This document shows positions 1 through 22,960 of a stretch of 33,206 nucleotides of DNA, in pieces. The notes beneath the pieces were generated by a model. That model made no database searches, was not told the DNA's origin, and was given only the letters and a program-made list of their open reading frames with translations. Position numbers and translations under genes: made by a program. The stretch is from NCBI GenBank assembly GCA_032718475.1, contig JAUCBJ010001228.1:1-33206 (forward strand), given 5' to 3'. The number at the start of each line of letters is the position of its first letter. Within the stretch, counting starts at the first letter, position 1. This DNA is from Nemertoderma westbladi. Its lineage: Eukaryota > Animalia > Xenacoelomorpha.

Positions 1-2268
1 TTGCCCCTACTGCTGTCTATGTCCCACCAATTACTCCGACTGATGTCAGTCTCCCAGTAGTTGCCCCCACTGCTGTCTATATCCCCCCTCATACTGATAC
101 TGATGTCCCCGTTATCTCTATTGCTCCCTCTGATTTAAATACTTGTTCTCCTGCCAAGAAGGTCACCGACCTCATCGATGACTACTTCAGTGATTACATG
201 CCCAATGATGATGATGAATCAGCGATAGCGATACTTGAATCAATAGATCTTCAAGATGAAAACATTTCAGACTTATATATGAGACCACTTACAACCATTT
301 CACCATCTGCAATAGAGTCAGATCCATTTTCACTTGATATATTAGAAGACCTTGGCTGTGATGATTGTCGAGATAAAGACTGGGTACTTTCTGATGATGA
401 GATATCAGAATCTTGTGATGATGAGTACAATAAGAATGAAGAAATTATTAATCCCGGAGTAGGATGCTCTATTTCAAAGAAATCTAAAGTGAAGGCTAAG
501 TACTCAATGAATAAGGAATCAAGTGTTCAAATACCCTACACTAATAATGAAGGTGGTCGTAGTTATGATAAAAAGCAATACTGTTTTTATTGTAAACAGC
601 CGCAGTCAAAATTGCATAACCATTTGACACGAAAGCATTCAAATGAAGATTTTGTCATTCGCATCATGATAGCTGGTTCTTTAGCTGAAAAACATAGTCT
701 ACAGAGCAAGATTCGTAACCTTGGGGCTCATGTACACAATATTGAAGTTCTAGAAAAGAACCAAGGCACATTACAGGTTGTATATCGACATAGTAAGAGC
801 GTTTCAGAATCCCAATGTTATACTGTAGATAACTATGGCCCATGCCCTGTTTGTATGGGGTGGTATTTAAAAGGTGATCTTTGGCGCCATCGTTGCCCAT
901 TGCGTGATATAGGTAAAGAGTCTGGACATGGTTGTCTAGGAACAGGGAGGTGGTCCTATGAAAGTAAACTGCTCATACCCTGTATTGGAAGTCCATCAGA
1001 TCTATCCAAAACGGTGAAAGAGATTATATGTTCTATGAACAACGGCCCAGTTTCTTTTGCTGTAAGGTCAGATGCCTTAATATTGGAATTTGCTAAAAGG
1101 GAGTGCCATAAGAATGGCCATGATTACGACCGTAGAGGTTATATCAGAGATAAGTTGCGTGAACTTGGGCGTCTCTTGATACAATTGAGGGAATGCGAGA
1201 ACATTCCAAGGGCAAAGTTGCAGGATTTCATCATCCCGTCTAAACTAACAGTTATAGTGGATGCAGTATACAAGTTGGCTGGTTTTGATTCTTCGTCCAA
1301 CACCTTTCAGCATCCTTCCCTGGCATTGAAGCTGGGTCACTCTGTAAAGAAATGTGCAACACTATTGAAGGCTAGTTCAATTGAACTAAATGATACTGAT
1401 ACTATGGAGTCTGCGGACAACTTCCTATCACTGTGCACCATAAGATGGCCAATGTCAGTCTCAGGTCATGCACTACGTACCATTCAACAGAACAAGCGTA
1501 ATAAGCCACAATTGCTCCCATTAGTCAGCGACATTGTTAAACTAACTGAATATATTCAGCAAAGGATTCCAGAACATATGTCATTAATTGATAAGGAAAT
1601 TCAAATTAAACAAAGTTGGCAATCCCTTAATGAGCTTGTACTTGCGTACTTAATTATCTTTAACAGACGTAGACAAGGAGAGGTATCGAAAATTAAGGTT
1701 GATGACTTTAGTAAACGTCATCATGTAAATGAGGTGTCAGATGACAATAGCCACTTGGGTGTTCTCGAACAGAACATGTGTCGACTCTTTCAAGTAATGG
1801 AGATTGTTGGTAAATGTGGTCGTACTGTACCAGTTCTTTTAAATGGTAAAACCATCGGAGCTATCGAGTGTTTGTTGAAGTATCGAGAGGAAGTTGGCGT
1901 TAATAGCACGAATGAATATCTCTTTGCTCGTGCGAACTATGGTAGTGTTTCCCACATCCGAGGATATGATGCTCTGCACAGCCTTGTTTCTGTTGTCAAC
2001 CTCACAAATCCAAAGGCTATGACATCTACGAAGTTACGTAAGCATATTGCCACAAGTGTGGCTATGCTAAATCTTAGCGAACAAGACCTCGAGCTGTTGG
2101 CAGGTTTTATGGGCCACGACATACGCGTTCATCGAGAGTTTTACCGCTTACCTGATAAAGTCCAGAGGGTAACCAAGTTATCCAAGCTGTTCATGGTAAT
2201 GGAGAAGGGCAACCTGGCTGAATTTAAAGGGCGTAATCTGGAGGATATCCTGAATGATAATTCTATAG
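1..2268 (+). CDS. Tyrosine recombinase of a Crypton-like DNA transposon, large exon (5' end outside the window)
   Basis: The frame is open from position 3 (APTAVYVPPITPTDV..., Pro/Thr/Val-rich repeats) through the ORF at 198. It has a Zn-finger (CFYCKQPQSKLHNHLTRKH) and YR catalytic motifs: FNRRRQGEV (R), GKCGR (K), STKLRKH (R), FMGHD (H), HREFYRLP (Y). Splice donor AG|GTGAGT at 2268/2269, phase 1. Confidence 0.85.
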
Positions 2269-2598
2269 GTGAGTGTGTCTATTTAATATTTATCTAGGTA
2301 TCTTATCTGTAGGTAAGAGGGGGGGGGGGGGGGGGGTCCAGCGCAATCAAAATGGGGTAAATCGAAGCAAATAACAGCTGATTACTCCCAACAATGAATC
2401 TGTAACCTGTTCTATTGATTGGGTTTATTGTTTTGGTTGGAATAACGTGCGACTTTAATCTGCATCCCTAAATTGATAATTTAACATGAAGGAGAAAATT
2501 AAATTTGGCGAGATGGGATTTCAACTTACAATTTCTGGGTTATGTATTATCTTTCCATTCCTACATTTTACAATAATTTTCATTGTTTTCATTTATAG

Positions 2599-2787
2599 AC
2601 CACCTTATGGACAATTCAGATTCTGATTCTGACGTCGAACCTGTTACTCAAATAGAAGGTTATGATCAAGTTGCTGCTGCTGTTCAAATTGGTGTTGATG
2701 GGATTGATGATCATAGGAGTATTGGTCGGCCATCCCCTACTTCATCCACGAGCAGAGCTATTGGCATATCGAATTTTGAAAATACAG
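2599..2787 (+). CDS. Tyrosine recombinase gene, internal exon (acidic, low-complexity linker)
   Basis: Acceptor ttttcatttatag|AC at 2598/2599 and donor AG|GTTAAG at 2787/2788. Both are phase 1 and keep the frame (DHLMDNSDSDSDVEP...ENT). Confidence 0.65.
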
Positions 2788-2847
2788 GTTAAGAATAAAA
2801 TTTATAATGTATATTTAATGACAAATAATTAAGTTAATATTCATAGG

Positions 2848-2987
2848 TCGAATAATCGAATCGAAGTCGAAATTGTTTACTTGAGTCGAATCGAAATTGT
2901 GCTGAATCGAATCGAAATCGAATCGAAAAATATATGGGAAATCGAAGACGAAAAATTGCTTTCGATTCGATTCGATGCAAGTCCCTG
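2848..2987. repeat. TCGAA(T/A)-rich short-repeat cluster ending in GCAAGTCCCTG; probable MITE terminus in intron 2
   Basis: Many ATCGAA/TTCGAT units in both orientations. The end reads CAGGGACTTGC on the minus strand, resembling hAT-type termini. The other end was not identified. Confidence 0.35.
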
Positions 2988-3610
2988 CCCTGAGGTCGAT
3001 AAAATGAGTACCAGTTAAATAACTGGGAGCAATTCTTAGGATAGGAGTAGCGTCCACCCCTACCTTCGGGTATCCTCAGGCTTCAGCCGACTATTTTGTG
3101 CTTAAAAGCTGAACTTTTATTAATAACATGAAAATTTTAGGTATTCATGTCTTATTCTTTTTAAAAATTCCCCGTTTTGATAATAGAAAATAATGTCAAT
3201 TAACATAACTTTTTTCAATGAAATTCACCGTCATTGTTTTTATCGAAACGGTAACATTATATTAATGAATAATTATTTTACTCTATGGGAAATTAACTTT
3301 ATTTGTACTGTTGCTGTAAAGAATTCAGCATCTTGTACTTTAGCCAAGAACAAGAAGAGTACTGCTTGTTTGTATAAAGAGTAGTAGTGTGCAATAAATT
3401 GCTTTGTATGGTGTGTTATACTTATTTAATTCCATAATATTAATATTTCATTCATGTTACAATGCTACATTGTAAGCAACTTATTAGAAATTAAATAGAA
3501 AAATGGCACATTTTGGCATTAAATATTGTAATCATATTATTGTGCTTATGGTATCCTAAACGTGATAAAGTGATAACGTTAATTATTCACATCTATCTTT
3601 TTTTATTCAG

Positions 3611-3849
3611 TACCGGTACGCAAACCAATAATAAAAAGACCCTGGACCATGGCGGAATCAAAGACCTTGACGAATCTTAATGGAATTCAGGAGATGCTTT
3701 TACTTGAAAAGCTACCAGGTAAAGATCCTCTGGAAAAGTTAATAATTGAAAATCCCGTGCTAAGTGGTAGAACATGGCGAAATGTCAAAGACTATTATCG
3801 GAACAATCGGAAGAAAATCTTAGAAGAGCTATCAGTGAAAAACAACTAA
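3611..3849 (+). CDS. Tyrosine recombinase gene, terminal exon with a Myb/SANT-like helix-turn-helix
   Basis: Acceptor ttttttattcag|TA at 3610/3611, phase 1, in frame with the ORF at 3649. Translation: KRPWTMAE...LSGRTWRNVKDYYRN (PW..E...RT...VKD.WRN-like pattern). Stop TAA at 3847-3849. Confidence 0.7.
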
Positions 3850-3863
3850 AACACAAGTAGCTG

Positions 3864-4099
3864 ACAAAAAGTACATCGTTTTGTTAACCCAAAACAATGC
3901 TTGTTGACACAGACATTTATTTTCGTTATCGAAGCGGGGAACATAACTGAATTCATATTATTAAAGTTAATCATATGGAAGGAGAGTATATGAGCAACGA
4001 CTCCCGGTTAGATCTAAATGTAGGGCGTGGCGTGGATGAGATGAACTTTCAGGAGTTGCTTAATTAACATTTAATTAAATTAAACGTCTGCTTTACGTT
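3864..4099 (+). repeat. 236-bp direct repeat, copy 1
   Basis: ACAAAAAGTACATCG...CTGCTTTACGTT appears identical by eye to 5886-6121. Confidence 0.95.
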
Positions 4100-4253
4100 C
4101 ATATTTTGTAGTAACTACTGTGCATATTTGTTGTATTTTGTTTTAATATACAAATGTTTTATTTGTATTGTATTTTGTATTGTGCAGTAAACTATGTACT
4201 AAGTTGTGAATAGATAAGGCATTATAATACATCATTATGTCGGGATACAGTAA

Positions 4254-5887
4254 ATTTTGTAGTACTGATTACCAGTTGTTCGTATTTTGTAGTACGGATT
4301 ACCAGTTGTTCGTATTATGTAGTACGGATTACCAGTTGTTCGTATTATGTAGTACTGATTACCAGTTGTTCGTATTATGTAGTACTGCTTACCAGTTGTT
4401 CGTATTTTGTAGTACGGATTACCAGTTGTTCGTATTTTGTAGTACGGATTACCAGTTGTTCGTATTATGTAGTACTGATTACCAGTTGTTCGTATTATGT
4501 AGTACTGCTTACCAGTTGTTCGTATTTTGTAGTACGGATTACCAGTTGTTCGTATTATATAGTACTGATTACCAGTTGTTCGTATTATGTAGTACGGATT
4601 ACCAGTTGTTCGTATTTTGTAGTACTGATTACCAGTTGTTCATATTATGTAGTACTGATTACCAGTTGTTCGTATTATGTAGTACTGATTACCAGTTGTT
4701 CGTATTTTGTAGTACGGATTACCAGTTGTTCGTATTTTGTAGTACTGATTACCAGTTGTTCGTATTTTGTAGTACTGATTACCAGTTGTTCATATTATGT
4801 AGTACTGATTACCAGTTGTTCGTATTATGTAGTACTGATTACCAGTTGTTCGTATTTTGTAGTACTGATTACCAGTTGTTCATATTATGTAGTACTGATT
4901 ACCAGTTGTTCGTATTATGTAGTACTGATTACCAGTTGTTCGTATTTTGTAGTACGGATTACCAGTTGTTCGTATTTTGTAGTACTGATTACCAGTTGTT
5001 CGTATTTTGTAGTACTGATTACCAGTTGTTCATATTATGTAGTACTGATTACCAGTTGTTCGTATTATGTAGTACTGATTACCAGTTGTTCGTATTTTGT
5101 AGTACGGATTACCAGTTGTTCGTATTTTGTAGTACTGATTACCAGTTGTTCATATTATGTAGTACTGATTACCAGTTGTTCGTATTATGTAGTACTGATT
5201 ACCAGTTGTTTTATTTTGTAGTACTGATTACCAGTTGTTCATATTATGTAGTACTGATTACCAGTTGTTCGTATTATGTAGTACTGATTACCAGTTGTTC
5301 GTATTTTGTAGTACGGATTACCAGTTGTTCGTATTTTGTAGTACTGATTACCAGTTGTTCGTATTTTGTAGTACTGATTACCAGTTGTTCATATTATGTA
5401 GTACTGATTACCAGTTGTTCATATTATGTAGTACTGATTACCAGTTGTTTTATTTTGTAGTACTGATTACCAGTTGTTCGTATTATGTAGTACTGATTAC
5501 CAGTTGTTCGTATTTTGTAGTACGGATTACCAGTTGTTCGTATTTTGTAGTACTGATTACCAGTTGTTCGTATTTTGTAGTACTGATTACCAGTTGTTCA
5601 TATTATGTAGTACTGATTACCAGTTGTTCGTATTATGTAGTACTGATTACCAGTTGTTTTATTTTGTAGTACTGATTACCAGTTGTTCGTATTATGTAGT
5701 ACTGATTACCAGTTGTTTTATTTTGTAGTACTGATTACCAGTTGTTCGTATTATGTAGTACTGATTACCAGTTGTTTTATTTTGTAGTACTGATTACCAG
5801 TTGTTCGTATTATATAGTACTGATTACCAGTTGTTCGTATTTTGTAGTACTGATTACCAGTTGTTCGTATTTTGTAGTACTGATTAC
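4254..5887 (+). repeat. 30-bp minisatellite, about 54-55 units
   Basis: Unit AGTACTGATTACCAGTTGTTCGTATT(T/A)TGT with a few recurring variants and several 29-bp units in the 3' part. There are no unique spacers. Confidence 0.98.
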
Positions 5888-6121
5888 AAAAAGTACATCG
5901 TTTTGTTAACCCAAAACAATGCTTGTTGACACAGACATTTATTTTCGTTATCGAAGCGGGGAACATAACTGAATTCATATTATTAAAGTTAATCATATGG
6001 AAGGAGAGTATATGAGCAACGACTCCCGGTTAGATCTAAATGTAGGGCGTGGCGTGGATGAGATGAACTTTCAGGAGTTGCTTAATTAACATTTAATTAA
6101 ATTAAACGTCTGCTTTACGTT
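5886..6121 (+). repeat. 236-bp direct repeat, copy 2
   Basis: Matches 3864-4099 at an offset of 2022 and starts exactly where the minisatellite ends. Confidence 0.95.
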
Positions 6122-6708
6122 TAGGATTAATGTTTTGTGGACATTTAGCTATTGAACTGTTATGAAACGGTTGGAAAATTTATTTTTTTGAAACTTTTTC
6201 CCTAACCGAAGACAAGATAGTCTATAACGTTAGATTAGCGTAATTAACGTAAATTTTTGCAGCGTCTTATGTAACTGAATTTTCTAATTAACCATAGTAG
6301 TGTGCTCACCTAACCCTGAGTTGGGAAACCGCAAGTTTGTATCTATTGTGGTTTTATTGACTTCAATTATATCGTATTTTTTTCAAAAACAAGTTCCCCT
6401 GGAAACTTTTTTTTCACATGATGAGACCCCTAGGGCACACGATGCGTCCTGGTCCTTATACATACATGCAAAATTTAAGGACACTTTTAAAGATATGATT
6501 TTGCTGGAATAAAAAATACAACATGAGGAAAAGTGCACATATGTACAGTATACACCATCTCTGCAAACGAAGGAAAATTGTTTTATTAGAGTTGATTTTC
6601 ATTAGCTTCGTACATATTGGAACAGTTTTTGAACATATTAATATGTTTAATTAAAATACATGTAATTAGCCATGCATTTCTACTAACAAAATAAAGGCAC
6701 AACATTTT

Positions 6709-7155
6709 CAAACCGGGGAGCGACACATTCAATTATTGGTTTATGGAAATTTGCGACATATGTAGAGGTACCGGTAATCTACTTAGTTCTTACTAGGCGG
6801 GATAGTAGCAAACCGGGGACTGTCACACTCCGTTATTGGCTTCGTATAATTTTTCACCTACGATTTTGCGACATCTAGCGGCGAATATTACAAAGCGGGG
6901 AGCACGGATATTTTTCACACAAAGCGGGGACCATAAATTCCGATACACTCCACATTCATAGACACACCAAGTTCGCTTCATAAACACAAACCGGGGATGA
7001 TATAAAATAAAATTATATTTATAAAAAATGACGTCATACTGATTATATTTGACCTCCTTAATATGATTATAGACGTCTTACAAACCGGGGAGCTCCCCGG
7101 TTTGCAATCGCTCCCCGCTTTGCGGGTCAAAAGTACAGTATGTCTCCCCGGTTTG
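6709..7155. repeat. Subterminal array of nine CAAA(C/G)CGGGGA motifs including a perfect 24-bp palindrome
   Basis: Forward copies at 6709, 6809, 6891, 6920, 6987 and 7081. Reverse copies end at 7104, 7122 and 7155. Palindrome CAAACCGGGGAGCTCCCCGGTTTG at 7081-7104. Confidence 0.9.
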
Positions 7156-7168
7156 CACCATCCGGCAG

Positions 7169-7170
<2 letters not shown>

Positions 7171-7238
<68 letters not shown>
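7171..7238. repeat. (CA)34 microsatellite
   Basis: Perfect CA dinucleotide run. Confidence 0.99.
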
Positions 7239-7242
<4 letters not shown>

Positions 7243-8153
7243 CCTCGCACCTACCGGTAGCCGGCGGTTGTATCAGAGTTTAACTACCAGTAGCTAGCTG
7301 ATTTTACTACATATACCAACAACGCTAAACTGTAGAATGGCAGAATGGCCACGACAGCAACCATAGCTCTTTAGCGTTACCGGTACCGTACTTACTAATA
7401 ATAAAATTAAATTAAGTCGACATGGGGGTTCGTGAATGCAGCATTAGAGGAGGCCCACCTAACAATAGGCTTACTGGTACCGGCACCATAGCACTCTTGT
7501 ACCTGTATACTTGGATAGCGCAAGAGCATGCTGGTTTCTTTGATTAAAGGATTAGGCTATTACACTTGAATGCTTCCAATTTTCTGTTTACAACTTTAAT
7601 TGGTCTAATCTACATTACTGTGTGCTACTGTTGCATAGGTAAGCCTATACAGCTATAGTTAACTTTATGCGGCTCCTTTTCGAATGTTGACCCAATATGC
7701 TTTACGGTTAACCTTTAGAACACACGGATAGGCACACAATCATTTGTTAGACATATAGGCCTAATGACAACGGTACTCCTCAACTGAAAGCCCTCCACCA
7801 CATTGATACAATAGGTATGGTTAGGCATCGGTAGCGCTATAGGCCCTATAAAATCCCCTCGCACTCTGTTACTCTAGCTGATACAATAGGTGTGGTTTGA
7901 GGTATAACTATATAAAATCCACCACATTCTCTGGTTACTAACATTCACTCTATGTTAACGATCCTATATAAAACATAGTTAGTTAGTTTATTTTATTTAT
8001 TTATGCGTCCGCTTTTTAAGTTAAATTACATATAATATAGACATACACAGACCGGTAACATTTAGGTCTACTTTACAGCTTTATAAATGCAGAAATGAGT
8101 ATGAGTGTACGGGTGTACAGGTGTAGGCCTACTAGTTAGATAGCAGTATCCAT

Positions 8154-8582
8154 CTATGAAAAATGTTGATGATTACCGGTAGGCCTATTATTATTATTAC
8201 AGGTAGGCGTTGCTAGTTTAATTTCTTTCCAAATAGTCTCCATCGGTTCTGGTATAGTTGCAGCGGTCTCTGTTTCCCAATTCTCTTGTAGTGGTATTAA
8301 TTCGTTTTGATTACCGGTAACTTCTTCTTCTTCTTCCGTTCCTGGATTTATTCTTATGTTCAAAGTAAAGTTTTTTGTTGTTTCTAACTTTGTAACACCG
8401 TGTTTGTGATTGATGATATTGGTAAATCCGATTTCAAATTTTTTATTAATGTATCTGATTTCCAAATCAGATACGTTTGAGGATGACACAAAAGTATCCT
8501 CACTCTCAAAATCGAACTTTATGCTGCTTTTCAACGACCGGTTGTTGATATAGGCGAAATATATATATATATCATATATCAT
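8154..8582 (-). CDS. Hypothetical protein, last gene of the pPolB cassette
   Basis: 142-aa ORF co-oriented with the pPolB and TBP-like genes, with a beta-like core and an acidic tail. TATA-like sequence upstream (~8615-8628) and AATAAA on the minus strand near 7987-8002. The start codon is uncertain and I recognise no family. Confidence 0.45.
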   Translation of the reverse strand: MIYDIYIYFAYINNRSLKSSIKFDFESEDTFVSSSNVSDLEIRYINKKFEIGFTNIINHKHGVTKLETTKNFTLNIRINPGTEEEEEVTGNQNELIPLQENWETETAATIPEPMETIWKEIKLATPTCNNNNRPTGNHQHFS

Positions 8583-9305
8583 CTATATATATCATCTTCT
8601 TGCTGTCTCAGGTTAGTTTATATATATAGTCTACTAAGGGTAACAGACAGGGTGGATACAGTATACCGGTATTTTTATTTTTTTTCTTATTTTGGTTAAC
8701 AAAATTATAGGTCATTGTTTGAAAATTGAGTTTATATATATTTTTGTAGGGGGTCGCAGATGTTTACATTACAAAATTCACATAGTTAACAAAATGTAGA
8801 ACATAAACCTTTCCCATGCGGATTAGCGATATATGCTCTGTTCATTGTTCTATTCTGAATGTAGGGAGATGCATAGCGGATGTTTTAATAATAATATGTG
8901 CCTGTATACAGACTAGTAACAGATAGGATGGCGTCGTCTTTGACTATGAATACCAGCACATACCCCTAATTTTTTTCTCACTGAGCTTAGCGTTGCCTGC
9001 TGTACACATGCACACTCATAAGTAACAGATGCGCTATAGTAGCTCACCCGTGAGCAACAATGCTTAGTTAGCTAGCTAGCTAGCTACGGCTGCTGAGTAT
9101 ACTATGCCTACTTGAGTGTTACAGGCAATCGCTCTACTGAAGTTAGTTAGTTAATTTTCCATCAAACTAGTTGTTGATTTAAAAAAAAATATTCATAAAT
9201 TTCTTCTCCCTCCAATTTAATATATATATATATATATTTTACAGTAAAAATCTCCACCACCACCAAACAGCATCAACAATAAATTTCACTCACACTAATT
9301 ATATT

Positions 9306-9836
9306 TTACATCAAAAACAATAATAAATTATTAACCAGTTTGATGAATATAGGATAATATATATGAAATTTAAACGGGGAACACATTAATGTACATTTAC
9401 CAGTGTAGAAACAGCAAACAACAACAATATTATTTATTCTGACTTTACAGTTATTGAATATTTCAGGGTCGTATGAAATTTCTAGTTTAACATTATCAAA
9501 TATAACATAAAACCCGATATTGTTTATAAGTAACCTATAAATTACAGTATCGATACTAAAAATATAAGTACACAAATTGATTGATTTAAAAATCAAATTA
9601 ATGTTTGTTTTTTCTAATATATGTTTTTTCACTTTATTAAAATTATATTTTCTACCGAGAATTGTTATTCGTCCATTTGTAAATATTAATATAGTTGCAC
9701 CAAATACCTTATATATAAACTGATTAGGTTTGAGTACAATTTTACCATTCAATTGATTTTTTAATTCTTTTAAATTAAGTCCAAAAATAATCTGCTTACA
9801 ACTTATATTTTTATTTACTATTTGATAATTCATCAT
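9306..9836 (-). CDS. Divergent TATA-box-binding-protein (TBP)-like protein
   Basis: Two TBP-type repeats: YQIVN...LNLKEL...ATILIFTNGRITILG (cf. TBP TALIFSSGKMVCTG) and ISYDPEIF...VVCCFYTGKCTLM (cf. SSYEPELF...VLLIFVSGKVVLTG). It is intronless and about 175 aa. The likely ATG is at 9836 or 9833, overlapping the pPolB C-terminus. Confidence 0.75.
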   Translation of the reverse strand: MMNYQIVNKNISCKQIIFGLNLKELKNQLNGKIVLKPNQFIYKVFGATILIFTNGRITILGRKYNFNKVKKHILEKTNINLIFKSINLCTYIFSIDTVIYRLLINNIGFYVIFDNVKLEISYDPEIFNNCKVRINNIVVVCCFYTGKCTLMCSPFKFHIYYPIFIKLVNNLLLFLM

Positions 9837-12800
9837 CAACACCGTCGTCTTTTGGTTCTTCATAAATTGGTATATTTGATATTTTTATAGGTTTTTTGAG
9901 GTTTGTTTTATAGTGCCCCCAAGGAAGCGATTGATTTTTATTAAGCCAATAAAGTTTATCATCAAAGCTACTGAGTGCAAATTTATTTTGCTTTAAGGTA
10001 TAAATACGATGTAATTTAGATTGAAATCTGTGTATGTTTTTTTTTATTTCTTCATTTGAGTTGTATGCTTTTAAATATTCTTCATATGTAATATTCGTTT
10101 CCACAACAGCTCTTGTAATACCTTTTGCTCTACGAATATTTTTATTATTCCATTCCAAAATTGAATATAATTTTGGTCTTAAAAATACTGCTTGTTTAAT
10201 TTCACGTGAGGCTAGTTCGTCTTTACAGTAATAGAGTCTGGATTTATTTTTATCGCTGTAGAGGGGGTGATCCTTAGGGTAATTGGAAGTATCTAAAATA
10301 TTATTTTTAATTAATGCTTTTAAAAAATTATTCTGTGATGTATTATAATAACAACCTATCAATGAGTCAGTGTCTGATGCGGCAATTTCAATACGACAGT
10401 TTAATTCTTTCTCAATAGGTAGCAATTTATTGTAATACAGCTCATACATATCCAATTTAGCCAAGTCCTACACAGCGCTACCAATAAATATAGGCTTATC
10501 GAGAGTTACAGAGTCTTTCACTAATAAATGTCCCGATAATGTATTATTGTATATTATAAATTGTTCATGATTAATACGATTTACCAATTGATCGCATTTA
10601 TCGTTGCTATTTGCGATACGAAAGTTACATCGGTCTCGTATCCTCTCTATTGATTTGCCAAACAGTGAATTATTGAGCAATTTCGCGACAGCAGTTTCAA
10701 TGTAACTTTTTGCTAGGCGCCTTTGATTAATATTAAAATCTATGTAATTTTTAAATACAAATTCTTGTTGAAAAGAATATAATTTATGTAGTTTAGTAAC
10801 AATTAATCCATGTTTTATATAAAATTTTAACAGTTTCAAATGTAAATGATAAAACTCTTTATCAAATTGCGTCAGCAAGAGTTTTGGTGTAGACATCCTA
10901 TATTTACGGGAGGTACCTCTTTGTATCGATAAATTATTAAATTGTTCCCGCATATAAGGCGAAAGCATTGTTTCATTTATACTTAAATGCTCAGGGGCTA
11001 ACGGTAATTGTAATGTTTGATCGTGAATAGCCTTGGGATAATTTAAATCACATATTAAAAAATATCCAGTAGATCCATCAATGTCTAAATCTACCAAGTA
11101 CTCGATTAGTTTTTCTGGAATTGCATTCTCTAAATGTTTAATACTTACTTCTTTGAATTGCGAGGTGGGTAGTTTTTTACTTAAATTTCCAGAATATAAA
11201 GAGTTGAAATCAATATTAAAAATATGGCATTCTTCCTTAGTAGAATCATATGTACTTGTACCTGGTATATTTGATTCTATATAATGTTTTCGACAAAATG
11301 AAACACCCTTTAATAATACTTTAATAATACATAATAATACATAATACATAATCCTTTATTAATTCTATTTTACATTTATTATATTTTAGCGCGCAATCAT
11401 AGGTAAATGACGCAATACTACAGTAAAAAACCACTTCTAAATCGTAATTTTGTTTACAAACATTCCTAAAATTCTCAAATATATCAGCAAGCAAACAAAC
11501 ATCGAGTTTTAAATAGGCTAAAAGATAATCTTTGAGATTCACACAGTCGAATTCTACCCATGATAATCCTTCAAACCTATAATCTTCAATTGTGCATGTT
11601 TTTTGTGTTAAGTTACTAAAAAAATTATTTATAGACGGCAAACCAGTATCATTAAATTTATTAATATCTGTCAAGTACTCGTATGGAAATACTCCTTTCC
11701 ATTTAATTGTTGAGTTATTCAAGTTTGGATAAAAATATTTCATTTCTTGTAGAGTAATAGGTAAAATTGAGCTTATATCATGACTCGCTACATTTGTTGA
11801 ACACTCAACTAAATTACTTAGGGAAAAGCTTAAAAATTGATATGTGTCTAAGAAACGTAACTCAATTTTTTTAGAAGTGTTTTTAATTTGGATAAACGCA
11901 CTCAGTGAAATATATCGTTCTGTATTTCTCGGTATAACCTTTATATCCCAATCGGTGTATTTCTTATCTCTAAATCCGGTTTGTAATATACAATGTATAT
12001 CGTAATTACTGGAATTGTGCCCGCAAAGTACATACAGGTATCGTTTCAATGATAAACTTCGGTTACAACTATTACAGGCTGTTGCAATATATTTACCTGT
12101 AATATGTGAATGATGTCTGTTTTTCCCAACATTATTATTTAAAGTAACATTACAATAGAAACAAAATTTTGCCTGTTCAAAATTTACAAAATCAATATTA
12201 GTAAATGACATAGTTTTATGAGTGTATATGTCTGACCAACAACATAATTCAGTTAAATCAAAATATAATGAATCTAAGAAATCTTGAATACAATTATTAT
12301 TATTATTTGACTTTACGAATGTTTTCAAATGACATTTTGGGGGGTTAATTAATTCAGTATTGGGAACAATTAAATAACTCGCAGCACACGGTATATGCTC
12401 CTGTATAAATTGATTATTAACTGAAGGTTGTAAGATACATTCTATATCAAAGTAGGTGACAAACAATGGGGATAAGGTTCTATCTAAATTTGTAAAACTA
12501 ATGTGTGTTCTTTTTTTATTAGGTAGTGTCTCTCGTTGACTTCTTCCTTGGTAGCATGCAAGACGGTGTCTTTGGAGAACTTCCGATTGAAAAAAATGAG
12601 CCAAACACCTTTCACAATATTTCCTATTCCCGATATGAAGAGCTCTCATATTCAGCAATCGATTCAAGTTAGTTATGCAAACATAATGATTCAGTTTAGG
12701 TACATTGTTATTTTTTACTACAAGTAATATATTTAATAACTCTTTATCGGGTGTAATTTTACTAAACGGTGGTTGTCTTAATATAGATACGGGAGAGCGT

Positions 12801-13873
12801 TTGTTGTCGTTATTCCAACATAGTAAATTAATTATATATTTTGAATTTTGTTTTTCAAAAAGTTTAATCGCTAACTGCCACTCTGTTGGATAATTATTTT
12901 TCCCGTTGTCAAAAATGAAATGACTCATATAATTTTTGTACGATGAAGTACGGTTTTTGTGATCTTTCACTTTGCTACTAAATTTTGCAGATATAATTAC
13001 CCATTTGAAACAGTCATTATCAGCCGTTTGTATATTTATTGTACATTTTTTAGCTGATAGAGCCTTAGGTAATTCCATATATCCATGCCCCTTATATAGT
13101 AACGACCTACACTTAGATTCAGCTAATTTAATTTCAACCCTTAATAAAGATTTAATACGCCATCCCGAACCACGTGTGTTAAAGATGGCTATTTTTTGTA
13201 ATATATTTTCCACAACATACTCAAACCATGTGTCAAAACTTTGCGACGAATCTACAGTATTAATAGCACCACCGGAAGAATTAAAATAAAAGGTTTCCAA
13301 TTGCTCGCCTTCTGAAAAATGTGATCTGTACATTAATACATTTAGACCTAACCACAGTCTAAGAACATTCATTTCTTTCAATCTATCTAATATTAACTGA
13401 AGAATATTACCTCGAATTTGTGCTAATGCTGTTTCTACATCGGGATAATCTCTAGAAGTTGGGAGGTCGTGGACATAAATTTCAAGACGATTATCGTGAG
13501 CTTCTTGTTCCCGCGTAAAAATTGTTGCGCATGTACCAAGAGCCATCCTTAAGTTTTTTCTGGATATTATATTTTTATGTTGCGGAAATTTACGCTTTCT
13601 TGTGTAGTAACATTTCAAGTGACAGTCGTGTCGTATATAATTCTCATATGTATACTCTTTATTACAGGTAGAACAAGTCAATTGATAGGTGCGGAACTCC
13701 ATTTCTTTACAACCAGTAGTCGATTCATGTCGTTTACAAATTTCGCTGCATGAAGTCACAACATGACACTTAAAACAAGAATAACTTTCAAAATGTGACC
13801 GTAGGTGGCGTAAGTAATTATGTCTAGTTACATTCATATGACAGAATGAACAACATATTGTTATTTTATCCAT
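9811..13873 (-). pseudogene. Polinton/Maverick-type protein-primed family B DNA polymerase, split into three ORFs
   Basis: N-terminal C2H2 fingers; RGSGW and INIQTADNDCFKW motifs; ExoI YFDIEC; endonuclease-VII-like insert CFYC...RHHSHITGKYIATACNSCN; ExoII GHNSSNYD; KGVFPYEY; ExoIII YLKLDVCLLAD; PolA IDFNSLY; PolB KLLNNSLFGK; PolC SDTDSL; C-terminal KGI and LSSFDDK. Frameshift at ~11311-11350 and in-frame TAG at 10468-10470 (GSAV*DLAKLDMY). Confidence 0.92.
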
Positions 13874-13975
13874 GTTGAAGTTTGTTTAGATAAATAATAA
13901 TAATAATAATAATAAAATATGTCCAAAGATTAAAATGAAATGAAATGAAATGAAATGTTATTGACTATATCTAAA

Positions 13976-14021
13976 CATTTATATGCTAGCGAGGGAAATA
14001 ATTTTAAACCAATCACCAATC
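13976..14021 (-). promoter_or_regulatory. Candidate Pol II promoter of pPolB (two CCAAT boxes and a TATA-like box)
   Basis: AACCAATCACCAATC at ~14007-14021 and CATATAAATG on the minus strand at ~13976-13985, about 100 bp upstream of the ATG at 13873. Confidence 0.35.
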
Positions 14022-14067
14022 GCTTATGACTATTAGAAACCACAAAGAGTTTAACTTATGATTAGGT

Positions 14068-15132
14068 TTACATATTAGGATAATAATCAGGTTTCCATGG
14101 AGAATTAGTAACAGGCTCTACTAGAGCTGGGTTACTGACAACTTTCTGTTTCTTTGCAGGTAATGTGTTGGTAAATTTACTCGATGATCTTGGCTTTCGA
14201 GGTAATATTTCAGGAAAGACCTGTTGCGGTTGAGAGCAACTCTCTTCAACATCCGGATTAGGTGATGGGATCTCTACGAAAGCTTTAGGTTTATCCAAAA
14301 GGACAAAACCGTCAACATTGGCTTCAATAAGAGAAACGCCATCCATAGCCTCTTTGAGAAAACTAATATGGGCTTTATCATTCAAGTAATGCAACTCGAT
14401 AGAATTTCCGCCGGCCCCTACTTCAGTAGAATTATCGGTGTTGGTGATAATAATTTTTTTATTATTGGTTTTAATCATTTTGTGACGGTCTGATAATTGA
14501 ATGATATTTTTATCAAAAAGATGCTTGTCTGTTTCATCGACTTGGTTGTCCCACTCTCGCAACAAAACAGTTAGTTCCTGTTTTGACAAATTGAAACCTG
14601 TATAATAGTTAAAACCAACACTATCAGCGTATCTGAGGCTGATTTTCCATAAGCCAACATAGTTGGTTCCTTTAAAAGCTGTTACAAATCCAATAAACTC
14701 TGGATTTGATAATTCAATGTAGAATTGATCGCTAATAATCTCTAGCGGTGGAGAGAGAAATTGCAATAATTTGCCTCTGTATTGAATTAGAACTTCAGTA
14801 AAAGCTTTGTTGAGAACTTTACATTTGCCTTGTTTCTGAACGTAAACATCACCCGATGTGGGGTTTATGGAAATATTCAAATTTCCCCGCGCAAAACGAA
14901 GAGTTGGATATATCCTACCTGGTATAATTGCTGGTCTGGATTGATGTTGGTTGTTGTTGGTTGTTTCTAGAATGTCTAACAAATAGCGGGTATCTTGATG
15001 GGAAAAACAAATTGATTCGTTGTCCTCCTGAGATTCCACAATAAAATACTTGCTGTGAACGATGGTACAAGTATATTTATTGTAAGTAAATTTCCAGCTA
15101 TTTGTTGCTCCGGTTTTTTGCGTTAAGGCCAT
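14068..15132 (-). CDS. Protein with a PC4/Sub1-like ssDNA-binding motif, possibly tandem degenerate copies
   Basis: Intact 354-aa ORF. FVTAFKGTNYVGLWK...TGFNLSKQELTVL resembles the PC4 pattern VSVRDFKGKVLIDIREY...KGISLNPEQWSQL. It has a Pro/Lys-rich tail with an NLS-like PAKKQK. Confidence 0.55.
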   Translation of the reverse strand: MALTQKTGATNSWKFTYNKYTCTIVHSKYFIVESQEDNESICFSHQDTRYLLDILETTNNNQHQSRPAIIPGRIYPTLRFARGNLNISINPTSGDVYVQKQGKCKVLNKAFTEVLIQYRGKLLQFLSPPLEIISDQFYIELSNPEFIGFVTAFKGTNYVGLWKISLRYADSVGFNYYTGFNLSKQELTVLLREWDNQVDETDKHLFDKNIIQLSDRHKMIKTNNKKIIITNTDNSTEVGAGGNSIELHYLNDKAHISFLKEAMDGVSLIEANVDGFVLLDKPKAFVEIPSPNPDVEESCSQPQQVFPEILPRKPRSSSKFTNTLPAKKQKVVSNPALVEPVTNSPWKPDYYPNM

Positions 15133-15187
15133 AATAATAATAATGAATACGAAAAATATTACAAGTGATAAATTTTAAACCGTATCG

Positions 15188-15490
15188 CTGTAATAAATTG
15201 ACACCATAGTTCTCACTCTAAAATTGTGTTTGGTCGGAAGACGACGCCTAAGAAAAATGATGCTGAGTTCGACATTAGGTATCGACTCAAAAACAAAAAT
15301 CGTGTGAGACACGTAGCTCAGATTTTCGTTTTTAGGTCGATACCCAATGCTGGAATCAGTATCATTTTATGTGGTGTCGTTTTCCGACCAACGAATATAC
15401 AACGAGTAAGATAATGTATAAATTATTAAGGAAATAACACAATGTCAGAGTGAGAACAAAAAAATTAGATATGGTATCAATATATTACCA
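15188..15490. other. Long imperfect inverted repeat (foldback), about 300 nt
   Basis: Inner arms 15230-15301 and ~15321-15391 (TTGGTCGGAAGACGACGCC... / ...GGTGTCGTTTTCCGACCAA). Outer arms 15209-15230 / ~15435-15457 and ~15190-15208 / 15470-15488. Apical mini-hairpin CGTGT-GAG-ACACG at 15301-15313. Confidence 0.88.
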
Positions 15491-16468
15491 TGAAGATTAC
15501 AAGTGATGAATTTTATTAAAAACATTCAGTTATATATATAAATTTGTGATGTGGCATAGTCAACGAAGAAGAGATGGGACGTGTCATAATCATCGACGAA
15601 TAAGAAAAGAGATGGGGTGCAACGTGGTTGAATGGTTGGTTGGTTACGTGGATAGGAAATATGTGAAAGAATATGAATCATAGGGTTGTGTGTAATAATA
15701 ATCAATAATTATTATAAAAACGCACAGTATAATGTTAGTAGTAGTAGCCTTTCAATATGACACAGATGCTGCGGGATCGGTTAGCTTGAGTAACTACTTG
15801 GAAATGTTCGTATACGTGTAGCTGGAACGTGGCGGAATTTCATGCACATGTATCATACTGAGTGGTTGGTTTATTGGTTTGGTGACAGCAGTTGAGTAGC
15901 TCTATCAACGGAGGGATGTAAATCGTTGAGTTGGCAATCGATATAATATACTGTAATATAACGACTTGGTATATGCATCGTGTAGATGGCCACGTTATCG
16001 TTTTAGTCACCATATACAGTATGTGGAGGTGGTAGCGTGGCGAAAAGGGGAATAATCGGTGGGTTGGGGGCTAGCCATGCGTCGAGAAGTTAGGCTACGC
16101 GAAGATGAATATGCAATGGATGGTTGTTGCAGCAATGATACGAATCAATACTATCGGTTGGTAGGTAACAGCTGCCGTTGAGTAAGGTGGGCAACGCGAG
16201 GTTAGGCTACGCGTAGGTGAATACGCTACGATTGGTTGATGGTAACTACCTCGATGGTGACAGATGTAGGCAATTAAACGCCGTAATTTAGCATCGGAAT
16301 TTGGCATTTTTAATAGTCCTCCGAGATGTAGCCCATAGCCCAAGCTAGGGAGGAGTTCGTTGGGGTCACCTCTTCTCCTACTACTGTTCCATTAACTTTG
16401 TAGTTCGTCTTAGTGTGTCTTTCTCTCAGCATATCATCATGGTATTTTTATCATCTATGACGGGATCT

Positions 16469-16625
16469 ATGAGATCCTGACCAGGTTAGATTTGTACGCG
16501 TCACCATTCTGCTGGCAGTTATGCTAAGTCGCTTTGGCTGAAGGCCGTTGGGGAAAACAATAGAGTTTTGTTTCTCAATATTGATAGTCCAAACGATAAT
16601 AGCACAATCAGCAAATCGGTAAATC
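16469..16625. repeat. About 150-bp direct repeat (LTR-like segment), copy 1
   Basis: ATGAGATCC...GTTAGATTTGTACGCGTCACC...AGCACAATC is nearly identical to 20498-20654. Confidence 0.92.
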
Positions 16626-18575
16626 CGTAATGACACAGATATAATAGCAGAAAATACACAGATTAATTGCTGATGTTAGTGGCGCTGACGGTCATAAACT
16701 ATGACCAGTCTGCAACTGAGTAACTAATGAACTGACCGGTAAATCAGTAGTGCAGAATAATATATATGATTAACACACACGGATATTGATTTCACCTCTT
16801 ACTGTACTTGGCCCTCTGTACCCAATGGATGCTTTCCTATCTCTAATCACGTGCTTCCCACCCCGCTATTGGCTAAGATTCTAATTGTCACTTTGGCACT
16901 CCCCGTGAGTGTTTCCCCCGCTGCTAGCCTCTACTAGCTGTATTCCCTCCGAGGTGGTTTGACCTCTCACCTCTCTCTGTGGCTTTAGGGCTTGTGTCGC
17001 CCCCCCCCCCCCCCCCCAATGTTGGTTATGAGGAGAGATTAATATTGGTAATCTCGTATCCCCAACTTATTGGTAAATGCCACTGGTCCCATTTGCTGGT
17101 AGGTAATGAAGTGGAATTGAATCCGCTTACACCCCCCCCACCCCCCATGCTATCTTCCCGGTGAGAAGATAGCATCAACCTTAAGTGCACTTCAATTCCG
17201 CTGGAACCCAATCTACTATCGGGTGTGGGGTGGATTTATTTTCTCGGGGTCGGCTTTCCTGACCCCCAACCCCCCCGGGTATGTTATTACTACCCCCCCT
17301 TGGTGCAATCACGAGCTATGTTGCACCAAGGTATCTGGCGTCTCTGTTTGAGACAATTGTGCTTTCTCTCCATACAATTTTTTACAACCTCACTCCAACC
17401 TTAATCTTGGACCTCTCTGTCCCTTACTCTCTCTCTCGCGGACCTCATTGTCCCTTACTCTCTCTCTTGCTGCTCACTCCCCACACTTGAATTGCACTCC
17501 TCTCACTTCCTCACGCGCCAACACCTCCTCTCCATACTTCCCTCATACTCAACCCATTTTGTTTGGTTCTCTGTCCCCTCCTGTCAGGCTCCCACATTCT
17601 CATCAGTGTGGCTGCACTAGAGAAATGGGATCCGTCTAATGTCTCCACCTACCCCTGATGTGCCTCACCCTCCCCTTTTGTGCCGTCACACTCAAGAAGC
17701 GTGATTCATCTAGTGTCTCGTCCTTCTGTCATAGTCAATTGGTCCCCAGACCCAGTAGTTAATTGGAAAAGGTTATATATGACTATAGTACTTATATTGG
17801 TAGTACTTATATTTCTCGATTAATTATATACATATGTAGAATGATGCTATTGCACTTAATTATTTGCACTTAGGAGTTCGTATTTGCCTTCCAGATCAAT
17901 GGTTGGCGTTCTTTTGGTATCCTCGCCAACTCCCCTGAGGGAATCCCCATAGGCCCTCAAATATGCTACCAACTTCTTCCACCTCTTGTACGGTATGTCC
18001 ACCTCTCTGTCAACTAGGTGTCGGCTACCGTAGTGTACCGACTCGCCCTTCAGCCCTGGGTGGTCTACAAAACTCTCAAAAGCCACCTTAAAGGCTCTCC
18101 TGTGATCTTGAGGTGCCCCTGATAGCTCTCTTCCGATAACCACGGCCTTGAATAGGTTTAATAAACCTATCATTATCCAATCCTCCTGTAAGATATATCT
18201 CTTCTGATATATCTTTATCGCTCCCCTTCGGATCTGATATATCTCCTGTTTCCCTGGCCTCGCTCCCCATTTCAGCGAGTTCGCCAGTTCTGCTCCGTAC
18301 TCCTCTCGGACTTGCCCCAGTCCATCGGCTTGTGGCAGACAAGCCCCATGAGCTGGCCCATCGCCACTGTCTCCACAATGTCCTGTGCCCGCTCCATGCT
18401 CCTCCGGAACTCTTACTAACTTCTAACTCTTACGGTACTATGTACCCTGATACTACCCTCATGGTATGTTAATATACCACACTCCCTACTACTACTACTA
18501 GCTCTTACGTACTATCTACTACTATTACTTTCTACTATTTCACTTCTTAAGTTATTATTTTCTTCCTATTTATTT

Positions 18576-19904
18576 TTATATTTTGTGTGGGAAGGGTGTC
18601 TCGCCCTCATTCCCACCCCCCTCAGTCCAACATATTGGACGACTAAACTTTAAGGCGATTCTTCCAGTAGGCACTCCCCACTGCCCCCCTGTAGGTCCTC
18701 TTATCCTTCGCCACACTCTCCTTGTCAATTCCAACTCTCTAGGAATTGATCTTCCCTCCTCCACCACCCTAAAATCGGGTCTTTCGGTCGCCTTCTTGAT
18801 TTCCTCATGGTCCCCTGGCAGCAAAATGCCACCCTTCATCTTGTCGTCACCTGGCGGTAGAATGAAAAGAAATTGAAAGAATAGATAAAACATAATGGAT
18901 AATAGTAATCCTATCCCTTTCCACCCTGTCTTCTTATTTGACCTCCCCCTTTTCGGTATGCCTTTCAACCGGACCAGCGTCTCCTCCGGACACTTCTCCG
19001 GACATCTCGCCGTCCACTCTTCTCCTTCCTCATACCGATACTTGCCGGGAACATCCTTGTTCCATCCCATCTTCTCTAAGTCTTCCGCGTCGAATCCATT
19101 CTCCTCCTCCCACTCTCTTACTGTTGCTTCCCCTACTGACTCATCTACCGACGGTATTTCTCTGGAACTATCCTCTATCCTTTCACCACGCTCCACTATG
19201 CGTGGTTCCAGATCCATACCCAACTCCTGGTATCCTTCCCCGGGCCGCTTCTTGCTTGGGACCTCCCCATCGCCTGTCTCTGGTTTCTCCTCTATGTCCT
19301 TAACAGTGCCTGATAGCATGCACCCTGATGTCTCCGACACCCTGAATGGAATCTTGGTTTTAATTGGGCTGCTAAGCGTCCATCCGAAAGGCGTGAGAAT
19401 CGCCGTCGGATCCCGCTGCTTATTCTCTCCGAATATGGTCCATACTCTCTCGTGGGCCATCGGACAATCCATTCCGACTATGATGGATACCTTCGAGACG
19501 TCCACTTCCGGTATTGAGAAATCGATATCGTCCAGGAACCGGTATTGCTCGACCTCGATCCTGGTAGGTCGCCTGGCGTTTATATTAATCGATTCTATTA
19601 TCTGAATGGGGTCGATGGTCGCCCCATAATCACATCCTGGTGCTATTGCTGATATCTCGCACCGTCCCGTTCTCATCTCCAGGACCTCATCCTTGCTCGA
19701 GATAGTAGTTACTGCCATCCTACTCGGCCTCGCCTGTAACCCTATCTCCTCGGCCGCCCAATTCTCCACCAGCGTGAAGGCTGCTCCGCTGTCGACCAGC
19801 ATCAATGTCGTGACTGATCGGCCGCCCTTTCCTGTTATCCTCAATGGTACTACCCCGAGTAGTACTGTCCTCTTTCTCCTTGCTCCCGTCGTGCTCGTAG
19901 CCAT
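18576..19904 (-). CDS. BEL/Pao-type aspartic protease with an unrelated acidic and hydrophobic C-terminal extension
   Basis: VLLGVVPLRI...MLVDSGAAFTLV (DSG active site), IIVGMD and PTAILTPFGWTL are characteristic of BEL/Pao protease regions. Confidence 0.8.
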   Translation of the reverse strand: MATSTTGARRKRTVLLGVVPLRITGKGGRSVTTLMLVDSGAAFTLVENWAAEEIGLQARPSRMAVTTISSKDEVLEMRTGRCEISAIAPGCDYGATIDPIQIIESININARRPTRIEVEQYRFLDDIDFSIPEVDVSKVSIIVGMDCPMAHERVWTIFGENKQRDPTAILTPFGWTLSSPIKTKIPFRVSETSGCMLSGTVKDIEEKPETGDGEVPSKKRPGEGYQELGMDLEPRIVERGERIEDSSREIPSVDESVGEATVREWEEENGFDAEDLEKMGWNKDVPGKYRYEEGEEWTARCPEKCPEETLVRLKGIPKRGRSNKKTGWKGIGLLLSIMFYLFFQFLFILPPGDDKMKGGILLPGDHEEIKKATERPDFRVVEEGRSIPRELELTRRVWRRIRGPTGGQWGVPTGRIALKFSRPICWTEGGGNEGETPFPHKI

Positions 19905-19907
19905 AGT

Positions 19908-20460
19908 TTAGCCTCCAGTCTCATCAGTCTCGTCGTATTCTATCGGTGTTTCTCTACACTCTCCGAATCTGTGTCCTTCTACCACGCATCGATGACATAG
20001 TCCGTTTGTATCTGTGTAGGCTACCCGATCTTGTTTATCTTGTGATCTCGCCTGCCAATGCTTACAACTCATGGTCTTATGGGTTACATCTCTATGCAAC
20101 TGACATTTGGATCCTGGATTGTAGTGTTCCTTGTATAGCCCTTCACGTATCGCGAGTAGGTTCATATCTACCAGTTTAGTGTTTTGATTATTTGGACTCG
20201 GCCTACTAATTACATTTGTCCGTGTTGTTATTTTGTTTCTGTTCGTGCCACGGTGTGGCCCTACTCCCAGCTATCTGTGGACTTGCAGTCCCCTGTGTCG
20301 CCGCGTATGGTAGTGACTGTCTTAATTTTGGTAACGCATTTGCCACACTATGTTCTGGTTTCGGCCTGTTATAATCGGTCTTTGGCGCCCTTCCCAGGCT
20401 ATCCTCGCTGTAGACTGGGTCTGTGATTAGTTCTGCTTCGTAATTGAGTAAGTTTGACAT
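19908..20460 (-). pseudogene. C-terminal BEL/Pao gag fragments with Zn knuckles
   Basis: YEAELITDPVYS, CQLHRDVTHKTMSC and GLCHRCVVEGHRFGEC (CCHC). Split across two frames and separated from the protease ORF by a single in-frame TAA. Confidence 0.75.
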
Positions 20461-20497
20461 TTCCTCTAGGCCCGGTTCCGCACCTTTCTTCTCCCGG

Positions 20498-20654
20498 ATG
20501 AGATCCCGACCGAGTTAGATTTGTACGCGTCACCGTTCTGCTGGCAGTTATGCTAAGTCGCTTTGGCCGAAGGCCGTTGGGGAAAACAATAGAGTTTTGT
20601 TTCTCAATATTGATAGTCCAAACGATAATAGCACAATCGGTAAATCGCTAAATC
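20498..20654. repeat. About 150-bp direct repeat (LTR-like segment), copy 2
   Basis: Matches 16469-16625 with a few substitutions and lies just upstream of the gag ATG at 20460. Confidence 0.92.
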
Positions 20655-21124
20655 AGTGCTTAATGTGCTCAGTGTACTAATCTTACTAATAATTATTACT
20701 ATTAGTCCTAATAATTTTACTACTGGAGATTGGAATCCCGTTTGTCGGATACTGGCATTTTATTGTGGGACTGTAAATATAGGATGTTAAACCGTTTAGT
20801 ACGTGGTCATCTTTCACTCTTATAATTTTCGCTGGACGCTTTGCAAGTCGGCGCGGCACTAGTTTCCCCTACTTTGTAGTCTAGGTTTGTAACAGCAGCT
20901 CAATCGAAACCACTTCTCACTCATTCATCCAAAATACCATGATTATTTATGTTAAACCTTTATGAATAACATACTAACCTTGCTTCAGTATCAATAGTCA
21001 CATGCATTACTGTTATAGACACTGATTCATTTCACATTTTGCCCTAATTATAATGATTTTCTGCAATATTGTATTATTATAATAATAATATATTAATAAA
21101 ATAATATATTTATTTTCTTCATAC

Positions 21125-22508: not shown

Positions 22509-22757
22509 AAAATTTTAAATCGTGGTTTTGACGGATAAATCACTAACATTACTCAATACATAAATTTCCTCTGCCAAGGTGTAAATGTTTTGACAATTGA
22601 AGTTAGATTGTAGTTTTATGAGCTAAATTAAATTAATAATAATTATTCAAAAGAAAGCTAAAATATATGTTACTATTATAATTAATTACTTATACAATAA
22701 TATATTATATTATTTTATATATTTATCACAGCGGCATTATGTGTTCCTGACACTTAC

Positions 22758-22883: not shown

Positions 22884-22960
22884 CTGTATTAATAGTAGCT
22901 GAGTAATTCAGGCATTATATTCTGGTTGAAACGGGTGGCATATTATTAGAGACAGAGCTG

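Follow-up and report, generated by a model that had tools for sequence, protein, structure and literature searches.

The 33,206-nucleotide contig JAUCBJ010001228.1 of the Nemertoderma westbladi assembly GCA_032718475.1, analysed here over its full length (the window), carries a row of genes for a PC4-like protein, a protein-primed DNA polymerase (pPolB), a TATA-binding-protein-like (TBP-like) protein and an orphan, and raises the question of what kind of element would pair such a polymerase with transcription-factor folds in the absence of a capsid. A prior sequence-only reading of positions 8154..15490 had offered several answers, chief among them a minimal capsid-less replicon and, as a last alternative, the remnant of a larger Polinton. 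The last alternative fits best: the block from ~7,170 to ~16,470 is probably a dead, truncated arm of an unusually abundant Polinton/Maverick-type family, the inner end of which was likely cut by a rearrangement involving a long terminal repeat (LTR) retrotransposon. We infer membership of the Polintons from the polymerase, from the relatives of its neighbours and from the motif at the one end that can be recognised.

Read depth in public contigs delimits the element. The stretch is present in five of eleven listed runs, four of them from organism A (X1 to X4; three samples, three studies) and one from organism B (X5). Runs X1 and X2 come from the same sample and differ in their profiles across the block; X4, of unknown library type, is low both in the block and in the interior of the neighbouring LTR retrotransposon; bins that X4 leaves uncovered were set aside, and neither X4 nor X5 was used for claims about copy number. 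At an (AC)n tract, depth leaps between the bins 6567-7233 and 7234-7900 (X1, 352 to 223,241; X3, 156 to 13,753) and remains high to ~16,400. The resulting block, ~7,170-16,470, measures 9.3 kb and exceeds the 8154..15490 first assigned to the element. Within 7234-16571 the ratio of X1 to X3 depth is 5.8-24.4 in 14 of 14 bins, and outside it is 0.96-2.7 in 16 of 16; because all inside bins separate from all outside bins, we treat the block as one family.

This separation also bears on whether the locus could be a chance mosaic or an assembly artefact, with the TBP-like and PC4-like genes foreign to the polymerase. Such an origin would accord with the observation that no listed contig spans the whole block, and with an X1/X3 ratio of 15-24 in the left 2 kb as against 5.8-8.3 in the remainder. 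The frame of the TBP-like gene nonetheless overlaps the end of the polymerase gene, the junction between the two is bridged by contigs (X4, 9490-10135; X3, 9697-9906), and base composition is uniform over the genes. Together with the clean division of inside from outside bins, these observations largely exclude a mosaic already, and we consider it scarcely credible.

Copy number was not derived from summed depth; ratios between single contigs serve as a rough floor. By this measure, a block contig at depth 46,643 in X1 compares with 11.5-43.5 in seven flank contigs (~1,070-4,060-fold), one at 10,833 in X3 compares with 9.1-15.9 in six (~680-1,190-fold), and a 520-nt contig over the orphan open reading frame (ORF) is 160-280-fold deeper than the flanks. 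Seven long contigs from other copies share 95-98% identity with the one in the window. The depth ratios suggest that each genome holds hundreds to thousands of members of a Polinton-type family; vertebrate Mavericks have a mean of 22 copies, and the largest number cited is 287. In X5 the block is covered at a depth of 1-7 with majority alleles, possibly through carry-over of organism A DNA, and we read neither expression nor a second host from this coverage.

Another reading takes the prevalent form to be a virus or episome replicating in the free state (similar to adintoviruses or bidnaviruses, and perhaps segmented), of which the window would hold an old integrated fragment. The sequence-only reading had pointed to read depth as a route to episomal copies; depth did reveal one very abundant block, but contigs cannot show free ends. 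Long unbranched contigs (in X3, one of 210 nt with a depth of 10,833 and one of 520 nt with a depth of 2,518; in X4, one of 1,211 nt) suggest a homogeneous majority form, and relative to the flanks the block's abundance in X1 is ~5 times that in X3 (median ratio 7.6 versus 1.5). This fivefold difference could be biology. Nevertheless, the disparate block profiles of X1 and X2, drawn from one sample, indicate that library effects can yield such ratios and may account for this one, and the block occurs in all four organism-A runs, as expected of an inherited family. On balance we regard a free virus or episome as very unlikely.

What, then, does the polymerase say about the identity of the element? 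As first described, the four genes are indeed co-oriented, all of them on the minus strand; the polymerase, however, is not one ORF. Its gene (13873-9811, minus strand) lies in three frames, 13873-11321, 11349-10468 and 10467-9811, which correspond, one after another, to successive stretches of a single intact homolog, P0001, and which are separated by a frame break and by a stop codon. The first piece (11321..13873) contains a Cys/His-rich N-terminus followed by what we take to be a terminal-protein (TP) region, a vOTU-like region, a proofreading exonuclease and an endonuclease-VII-like insert, the counterpart of which in a related locus, L014, matches Pfam Endonuclease_7. The second (10468..11349) carries polymerase motifs A (DFNSLY) and B (KLLNNSLFGK), is 33% identical to residues 760-999 of P0001 and ends in an in-frame TAG at 10468-10470, and the third (9811..10467) carries motif C (SDTDS) and the C-terminal palm, at 40% identity to P0001 1001-1185. 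The first frame break falls in a scrambled stretch of 10-11-nt tandem units (11308..11350, no strand assigned); since contigs from other copies either end loose there (at 11307 and 11348) or span it with indels, this break appears particular to the window copy. The window copy is presumably dead. An attempt to read selection from the codon positions of 34 listed differences (12/6/16) was abandoned, the differences being too few and too selected.

The window pieces themselves find no match to PF03175 in Pfam, and we place the window polymerase in the PF03175 class because its homologs P0001 (E 2.5e-57) and P0002 (E 3.9e-30) carry this domain. The TP and vOTU regions are our own assignment by position and motif, the vOTU domain being understood as in the accessible portion of 10.1101/2024.03.18.585575; the vOTU Cys (in DNDCF) and His (in NHYV) are present and are conserved in P0001 and P0002. 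Bidnaviruses and the pGKL-type fungal cytoplasmic linear plasmids likewise have a pPolB with terminal-protein and vOTU regions, and the bidnavirid vOTU is described as inactivated, both according to the same portion of that source. The retention of the vOTU-like Cys and His in the window polymerase sets it apart from Bidnaviridae and counts further against a virus or episome of that type. The pGKL-type plasmids bring their own RNA polymerase and capping genes. No unassigned ORF of RNA-polymerase size exists in the cut block, and TATA-like and initiator-like sites in the window, among them a pair 32 nt apart upstream of the polymerase, point to host nuclear RNA polymerase II.

Using polymerase patterns, we fetched 49 related loci (3 viral and at least 46 metagenomic, from 596 of ~690 stretches). 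The sequence-only reading had envisaged a pPolB phylogeny against named families. A FastTree phylogeny of the unbroken N-terminal piece (14 sequences over 550 columns, including 11 long locus polymerases plus P0001 and P0002, with shorter ORFs left out) does group the window polymerase with P0001, L011, L014 and L019 (support 0.978, ~30% identity), in a tree that is midpoint-rooted and does not contain the named references. L014 (12.9 kb) is the sole member of this nearest clade long enough to show gene content, and by Pfam it carries a TBP, an rve integrase (E 1e-12) and a Pox_A32 ATPase (E 2e-6). Elsewhere in the collection, a viral contig (L001:4475-10003) encodes an 1,842-aa pPolB with a long C-terminal extension. 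The PF03175-class polymerase with its TP and vOTU regions, the candidate terminus resembling the AC-type end and the intronless genes all liken the window element to Polintons and Mavericks, and the closest described type is that of Polintons with an OTU-PF03175 polymerase (the 'Alpha' adintoviruses, or Polinton group 2, in the available part of PMC8502044).

The relatives of the gene that follows the polymerase lead in the same direction. The TBP-like gene (9306..9836, within an ORF at 9306-9863, minus strand) would encode ~175 aa in two repeats; its likely start, at 9833 or 9836, overlaps the last polymerase codons. In keeping with the fold first proposed for it, the predicted protein matches Pfam TBP (PF00352) above the cut-off in two stretches (E 6.1e-7), each half matches Pfam TBP alone (E 4e-4 and 0.012), and the NCBIfam TBP model is matched at E 0.002. 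It is 29% identical to the TBP of L014 (E 2e-8), its only match among the 49 fetched loci, and it retains the Y-x-P/x-E-x-F motif of the second repeat. A single-sequence structural model was poor (pLDDT 35), and a fold search with it, ranking TBP chains 1, 2 and 4 (Z 5.0-5.4), is counted as consistent only. No homolog was found in a search of a protein collection, from which the exact window proteins are themselves absent, and a sequence search of the PDB was blank. We consider the TBP fold, as predicted from these profile matches, a sound call.

The window protein resembles the TBPs of L014, L028 and L030 in consisting of a two-repeat core of ~150-185 aa with no N-terminal extension. Those of the Polinton-like loci L028 (L028:1-965, E 7e-16) and L030 (L030:3305-4461, E 2e-14) are Pfam-positive, and L028 also carries an adenain. 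The window protein is more diverged from cellular TBP (30 bits in Pfam versus 53-63), its gene adjoins and overlaps that of the polymerase, and it has no adjacent TFIIB-like partner, unlike the TBP of L030, whose gene has a TFIIB-like one immediately after it (Pfam E 3e-4); in L028 the corresponding frame is cut and has no match. TBP is labelled on pPolB elements in the Fig. 5 legend of PMC8502044, as far as that paper was accessible.

Beyond the TBP-like gene, a 142-aa orphan ORF (8154..8582, minus strand) has a predicted beta-rich start and an acidic tail. Where it begins is uncertain, since the TA-rich stretch containing its start codon is missing from some copies (joint 8559-8592). Other copies carry 3- and 9-nt indels inside the orphan, and since these keep the frame they suggest that it is a real gene. 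No useful match was found in Pfam, NCBIfam or PHROGs and no homolog in the 49 fetched loci; the best ESM Atlas hit (0.88) was a lead only and was not used.

At the other end of the row, ORF1 (14068-15132, minus strand; 354 aa) had been read as PC4-like, and structural comparison bears this out at the level of the superfamily. Its model predicts two beta-sheet-plus-helix repeats ahead of a tail rich in P, S, K and E, and is confident only for residues 11-59 and 83-126, with residues 127-354 below a pLDDT of 50; the sequence pattern alone hints at two more repeats. Searched against 48,161 chains, residues 9-129 match Pur-alpha at Z 10.4 (rmsd 3.6, 119 residues aligned), MRP1/2 at 7.7, Whirly at 6.4 and 6.2 and human PC4 at 4.2, proteins that we take to form a single PC4/Pur/Whirly superfamily. 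Six of the top seven chains are named or uncharacterised whirly-like proteins, and unrelated rows score well below them, at Z 4.9 or less. By sequence, ORF1 has no Pfam match, whether whole or in three parts, no match to the profile of PC4 proper (PF02229) and no homolog in the protein collection; a PDB sequence search of its second half was blank, and ESM Atlas gave only leads below 0.9, which were not used. Among viral structures, one of four matches at E<0.001 is MOSUB of a Bos-associated insect adintovirus (E 4.5e-4), which we presume to be named after MoSub1/PC4. MOSUB (A0A5H3CT48, 197 aa) and the 354-aa ORF1 share a beta-sheet-plus-helix repeat fold and residence in a pPolB element, yet show no sequence-level match. 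In the available part of PMC8502044, Supp. Fig. S2 places MOSUB in an adintovirus bounded by inverted terminal repeats (ITRs) that also carries an integrase, FtsK, penton and hexon. [quoted passage not shown] Our literature searches found no paper that joins a Polinton or pPolB with PC4, or a Polinton with TATA-binding protein plus PC4, and did not find MOSUB together with adintovirus in the main text of papers, nor Mavericks together with TATA-box binding, an integrase and a capsid. By Pfam, no PC4 was found in the 42 locus ORFs scanned (of 346), and the order PC4-like, pPolB, TBP-like occurs in none of the 49 loci.

The long foldback that had been noted ahead of the genes is likewise well marked. 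It spans 300 nt (15190..15488, no strand assigned), has the first gene on one side and a TATA/initiator-like site on the other, folds as DNA at -70 kcal/mol (z -10.3, with 0 of 100 shuffles folding as well) and is flanked by a 23-nt direct repeat (15155-15177 and 15493-15515). A minority of copies skip it (joints 15150-15468, 15180-15501 and 14748-15411). Rfam gave no match anywhere in 7,100-17,200. The TATA-like box and initiator-like motif, 29 nt apart at 15500..15545 (minus strand), lie upstream of both the foldback and the first ATG and are candidate matches to the usual consensus.

If the family is of the Polinton/Maverick type, the edges of the block should reveal how much of the element survives. 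The left edge is the (AC)n tract (7170..7243, plus strand), with (AC)34 at 7170-7237, a candidate element terminus that resembles the Maverick end motif 5'-(AC)3A. It is followed by a high-depth non-coding region (7244..8150, no strand assigned) that may be one arm of a terminal inverted repeat. The window yielded no partner for this arm, either by local alignment of 7244-8050 (scores of 29-32, versus 26-34 in 8 shuffles) or by self-blastn. A doubling of depth at 7,300-7,900 over the next bins might have indicated a terminal repeat, but this reading was rejected, 8,500-9,400 being equally high. Directly left of the (AC)n tract lies a low-copy repeat (6466-7065; contig depth 410 in X1 and 164 in X3) with scattered short GC-rich motifs, into which the element seems to have been inserted.

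On the right, a GC-richer region (16000..16468, no strand assigned), made up in part of 112-nt repeated units that vary among copies, stops at the junction with a rearranged LTR retrotransposon (16469..20657, minus strand) that is a neighbour outside the element. Contigs from other copies end loose near this edge (16180 and 16273) or join 16002 to 16197, and a 45-codon frame at 16310-16447 (minus strand) may be the tail of a cut gene. Depth is still high here (65,346 in X1 at 16116-16400); past the retrotransposon, from ~20,620, the DNA is single-copy again. The retrotransposon, which we take to be BEL/Pao-like, has an aspartyl protease (Pfam E 2e-5), a polypurine tract followed by TG at ~17131 and an apparently full LTR at ~16,470-17,130, whereas its second LTR survives as 160 nt only (repeat 16469-16628/20498-20657). 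A single deletion after insertion of the retrotransposon would explain the loss both of this LTR and of the remainder of the pPolB element. In the part of PMC8097293 available to us, Mavericks have short-repeat ends that include 5'-(AC)3A and inverted repeats of 46-1,447 bp, and intact vertebrate elements measure 12.7-24.6 kb, so that the 9.3-kb block is shorter than any of the latter.

Truncation changes how the missing genes are to be read. Compared with Polintons and Mavericks, the window copy is 9.3 kb long, keeps a single end and a broken polymerase, lacks integrase, ATPase, capsid and protease, and belongs to a family whose abundance by read depth is far above that of vertebrate Mavericks. 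That no capsid, ATPase, adenain or integrase is recognisable agrees with the sequence-only reading: with the 346 ORFs of the 49 loci as tblastn queries (E<0.01), the only matches in the window outside the polymerase were TBP and a weak one in the host flank (E 0.005), and small profiles of 3-7 sequences, run over 752 six-frame segments, scored E 0.09 at best, these profiles being weak enough that the one for TBP scored only E 0.34 on the true TBP-like frame. Neither route turned up a frame resembling a capsid, ATPase, protease or integrase anywhere in the 33-kb window. Because the copy is a one-ended 9.3-kb piece, this absence says little about the family, and because it is probably truncated, 'capsid-less' cannot be read from it.

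A contrasting account holds that the family is truly capsid-less, a ~10-kb replication-only derivative (SSB, pPolB, TBP and orphan) that multiplies through its own protein-primed replication and depends for integration on the integrase of a helper Polinton or on host repair. In its favour, 33 kb pass without a morphogenesis or integrase gene, depth is very high and fairly even over exactly these genes, internal-deletion joints (14748-15411 and 12669-14163) exist among copies, and nine Polintons that lack capsid, protease and ATPase together are on record in the accessible part of PMC4028283. Set against those nine, however, the window copy also lacks integrase and one end, for which truncation is the simpler account. 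A complete derivative should retain both ends, and one is seen; the right edge is a retrotransposon junction; and L014, the only long locus of the nearest clade, has an integrase and an ATPase. We therefore think a capsid-less family possible but unlikely. Still more doubtful is its fullest version, the complete ~10-kb, integrase-less animal replicon, with a pPolB, a four-repeat PC4/Pur-fold SSB and a private TBP, in which the 300-nt hairpin in the 5' leader of the SSB gene might be bound by that SSB and at least 1,000 copies per cell would be carried, partly extrachromosomally and at a load differing between individuals. Were this correct, the element would be a nuclear linear plasmid of animals, and would matter much more than a decayed fragment. 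The window copy lends it no support, having a broken polymerase, one recognisable end and an LTR-retrotransposon junction. TBP-like and PC4-like genes are found, besides, in Polintons or adintoviruses equipped with integrase, ATPase and protease.

Several observations weigh against the truncated Polinton arm that we favour. No copy was read past 16,469, so the missing arm is deduced rather than seen, and of the two ends that a Polinton's 6-bp target-site duplication would flank, one candidate is present. The long (AC)n tract may be a microsatellite of the host. Identity to the nearest polymerases is only ~30%, such that gene content need not transfer from them, and in L014 the TBP lies on the opposite strand and far from the polymerase. 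None of the 49 loci has an ORF1 homolog (one match at E 0.13, inside a polymerase, was discounted). The capsid labels on L014, L009, L028 and L030 are ones we presume from size and position, and searches of the presumed capsid ORFs of the fetched loci in Pfam, NCBIfam, PHROGs and the PDB were blank. The 45-codon frame at 16310-16447 matches nothing in Pfam, NCBIfam, PHROGs or the 49 loci. Finally, hundreds to thousands of copies per genome far exceed vertebrate Maverick numbers.

The surrounding DNA is rich in other repeats. An intact 699-aa ORF (198-2297, plus strand) beyond the high-depth block, blank in Pfam, NCBIfam and PHROGs, has motifs that we take to be of the Crypton-like tyrosine-recombinase type; its candidacy as the element's integrase was set aside, depth being ~100-fold lower at 5,900-7,233. 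Between perfect 236-nt direct repeats (3864-4099 and 5886-6121), a 30-nt unit is repeated 54.6 times (4254-5887), an arrangement that could reflect either recent duplication or a join made in assembly. To the right of the retrotransposon, three host exon frames with ShK-like domains (22750-25340, minus strand; Pfam E 1e-3 to 4e-6) mark an animal host gene with repeat-filled introns, and palindromic MITE-like repeats occur at 22970-23490, where read depth is very high, and at 30036-30286.

Protein-primed initiation at short terminal repeats is established for the Polinton/Maverick family. In an active member of the family described here, the polymerase would accordingly start at the short-repeat terminus and copy a linear genome by strand displacement, while the tandem PC4/Pur-fold protein, if its predicted fold is borne out, could coat the displaced strand as the element's own SSB. 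The TBP-like protein might help host RNA polymerase II to initiate from the element's promoters, the most plausible targets being those of the particle and integration genes, which would sit in the missing arm beyond 16,469. The kinds of gene in the block have already been seen in complete Polintons; what the locus adds is a polymerase with a divergent tandem protein of PC4/Pur fold on one side and a TBP on the other, both immediately adjacent, which together would amount to a minimal kit for replication and transcription. Its most unusual feature is the abundance suggested by read depth, which would make this host a promising one in which to seek Mavericks that actively replicate, exist as free genomes or form particles.

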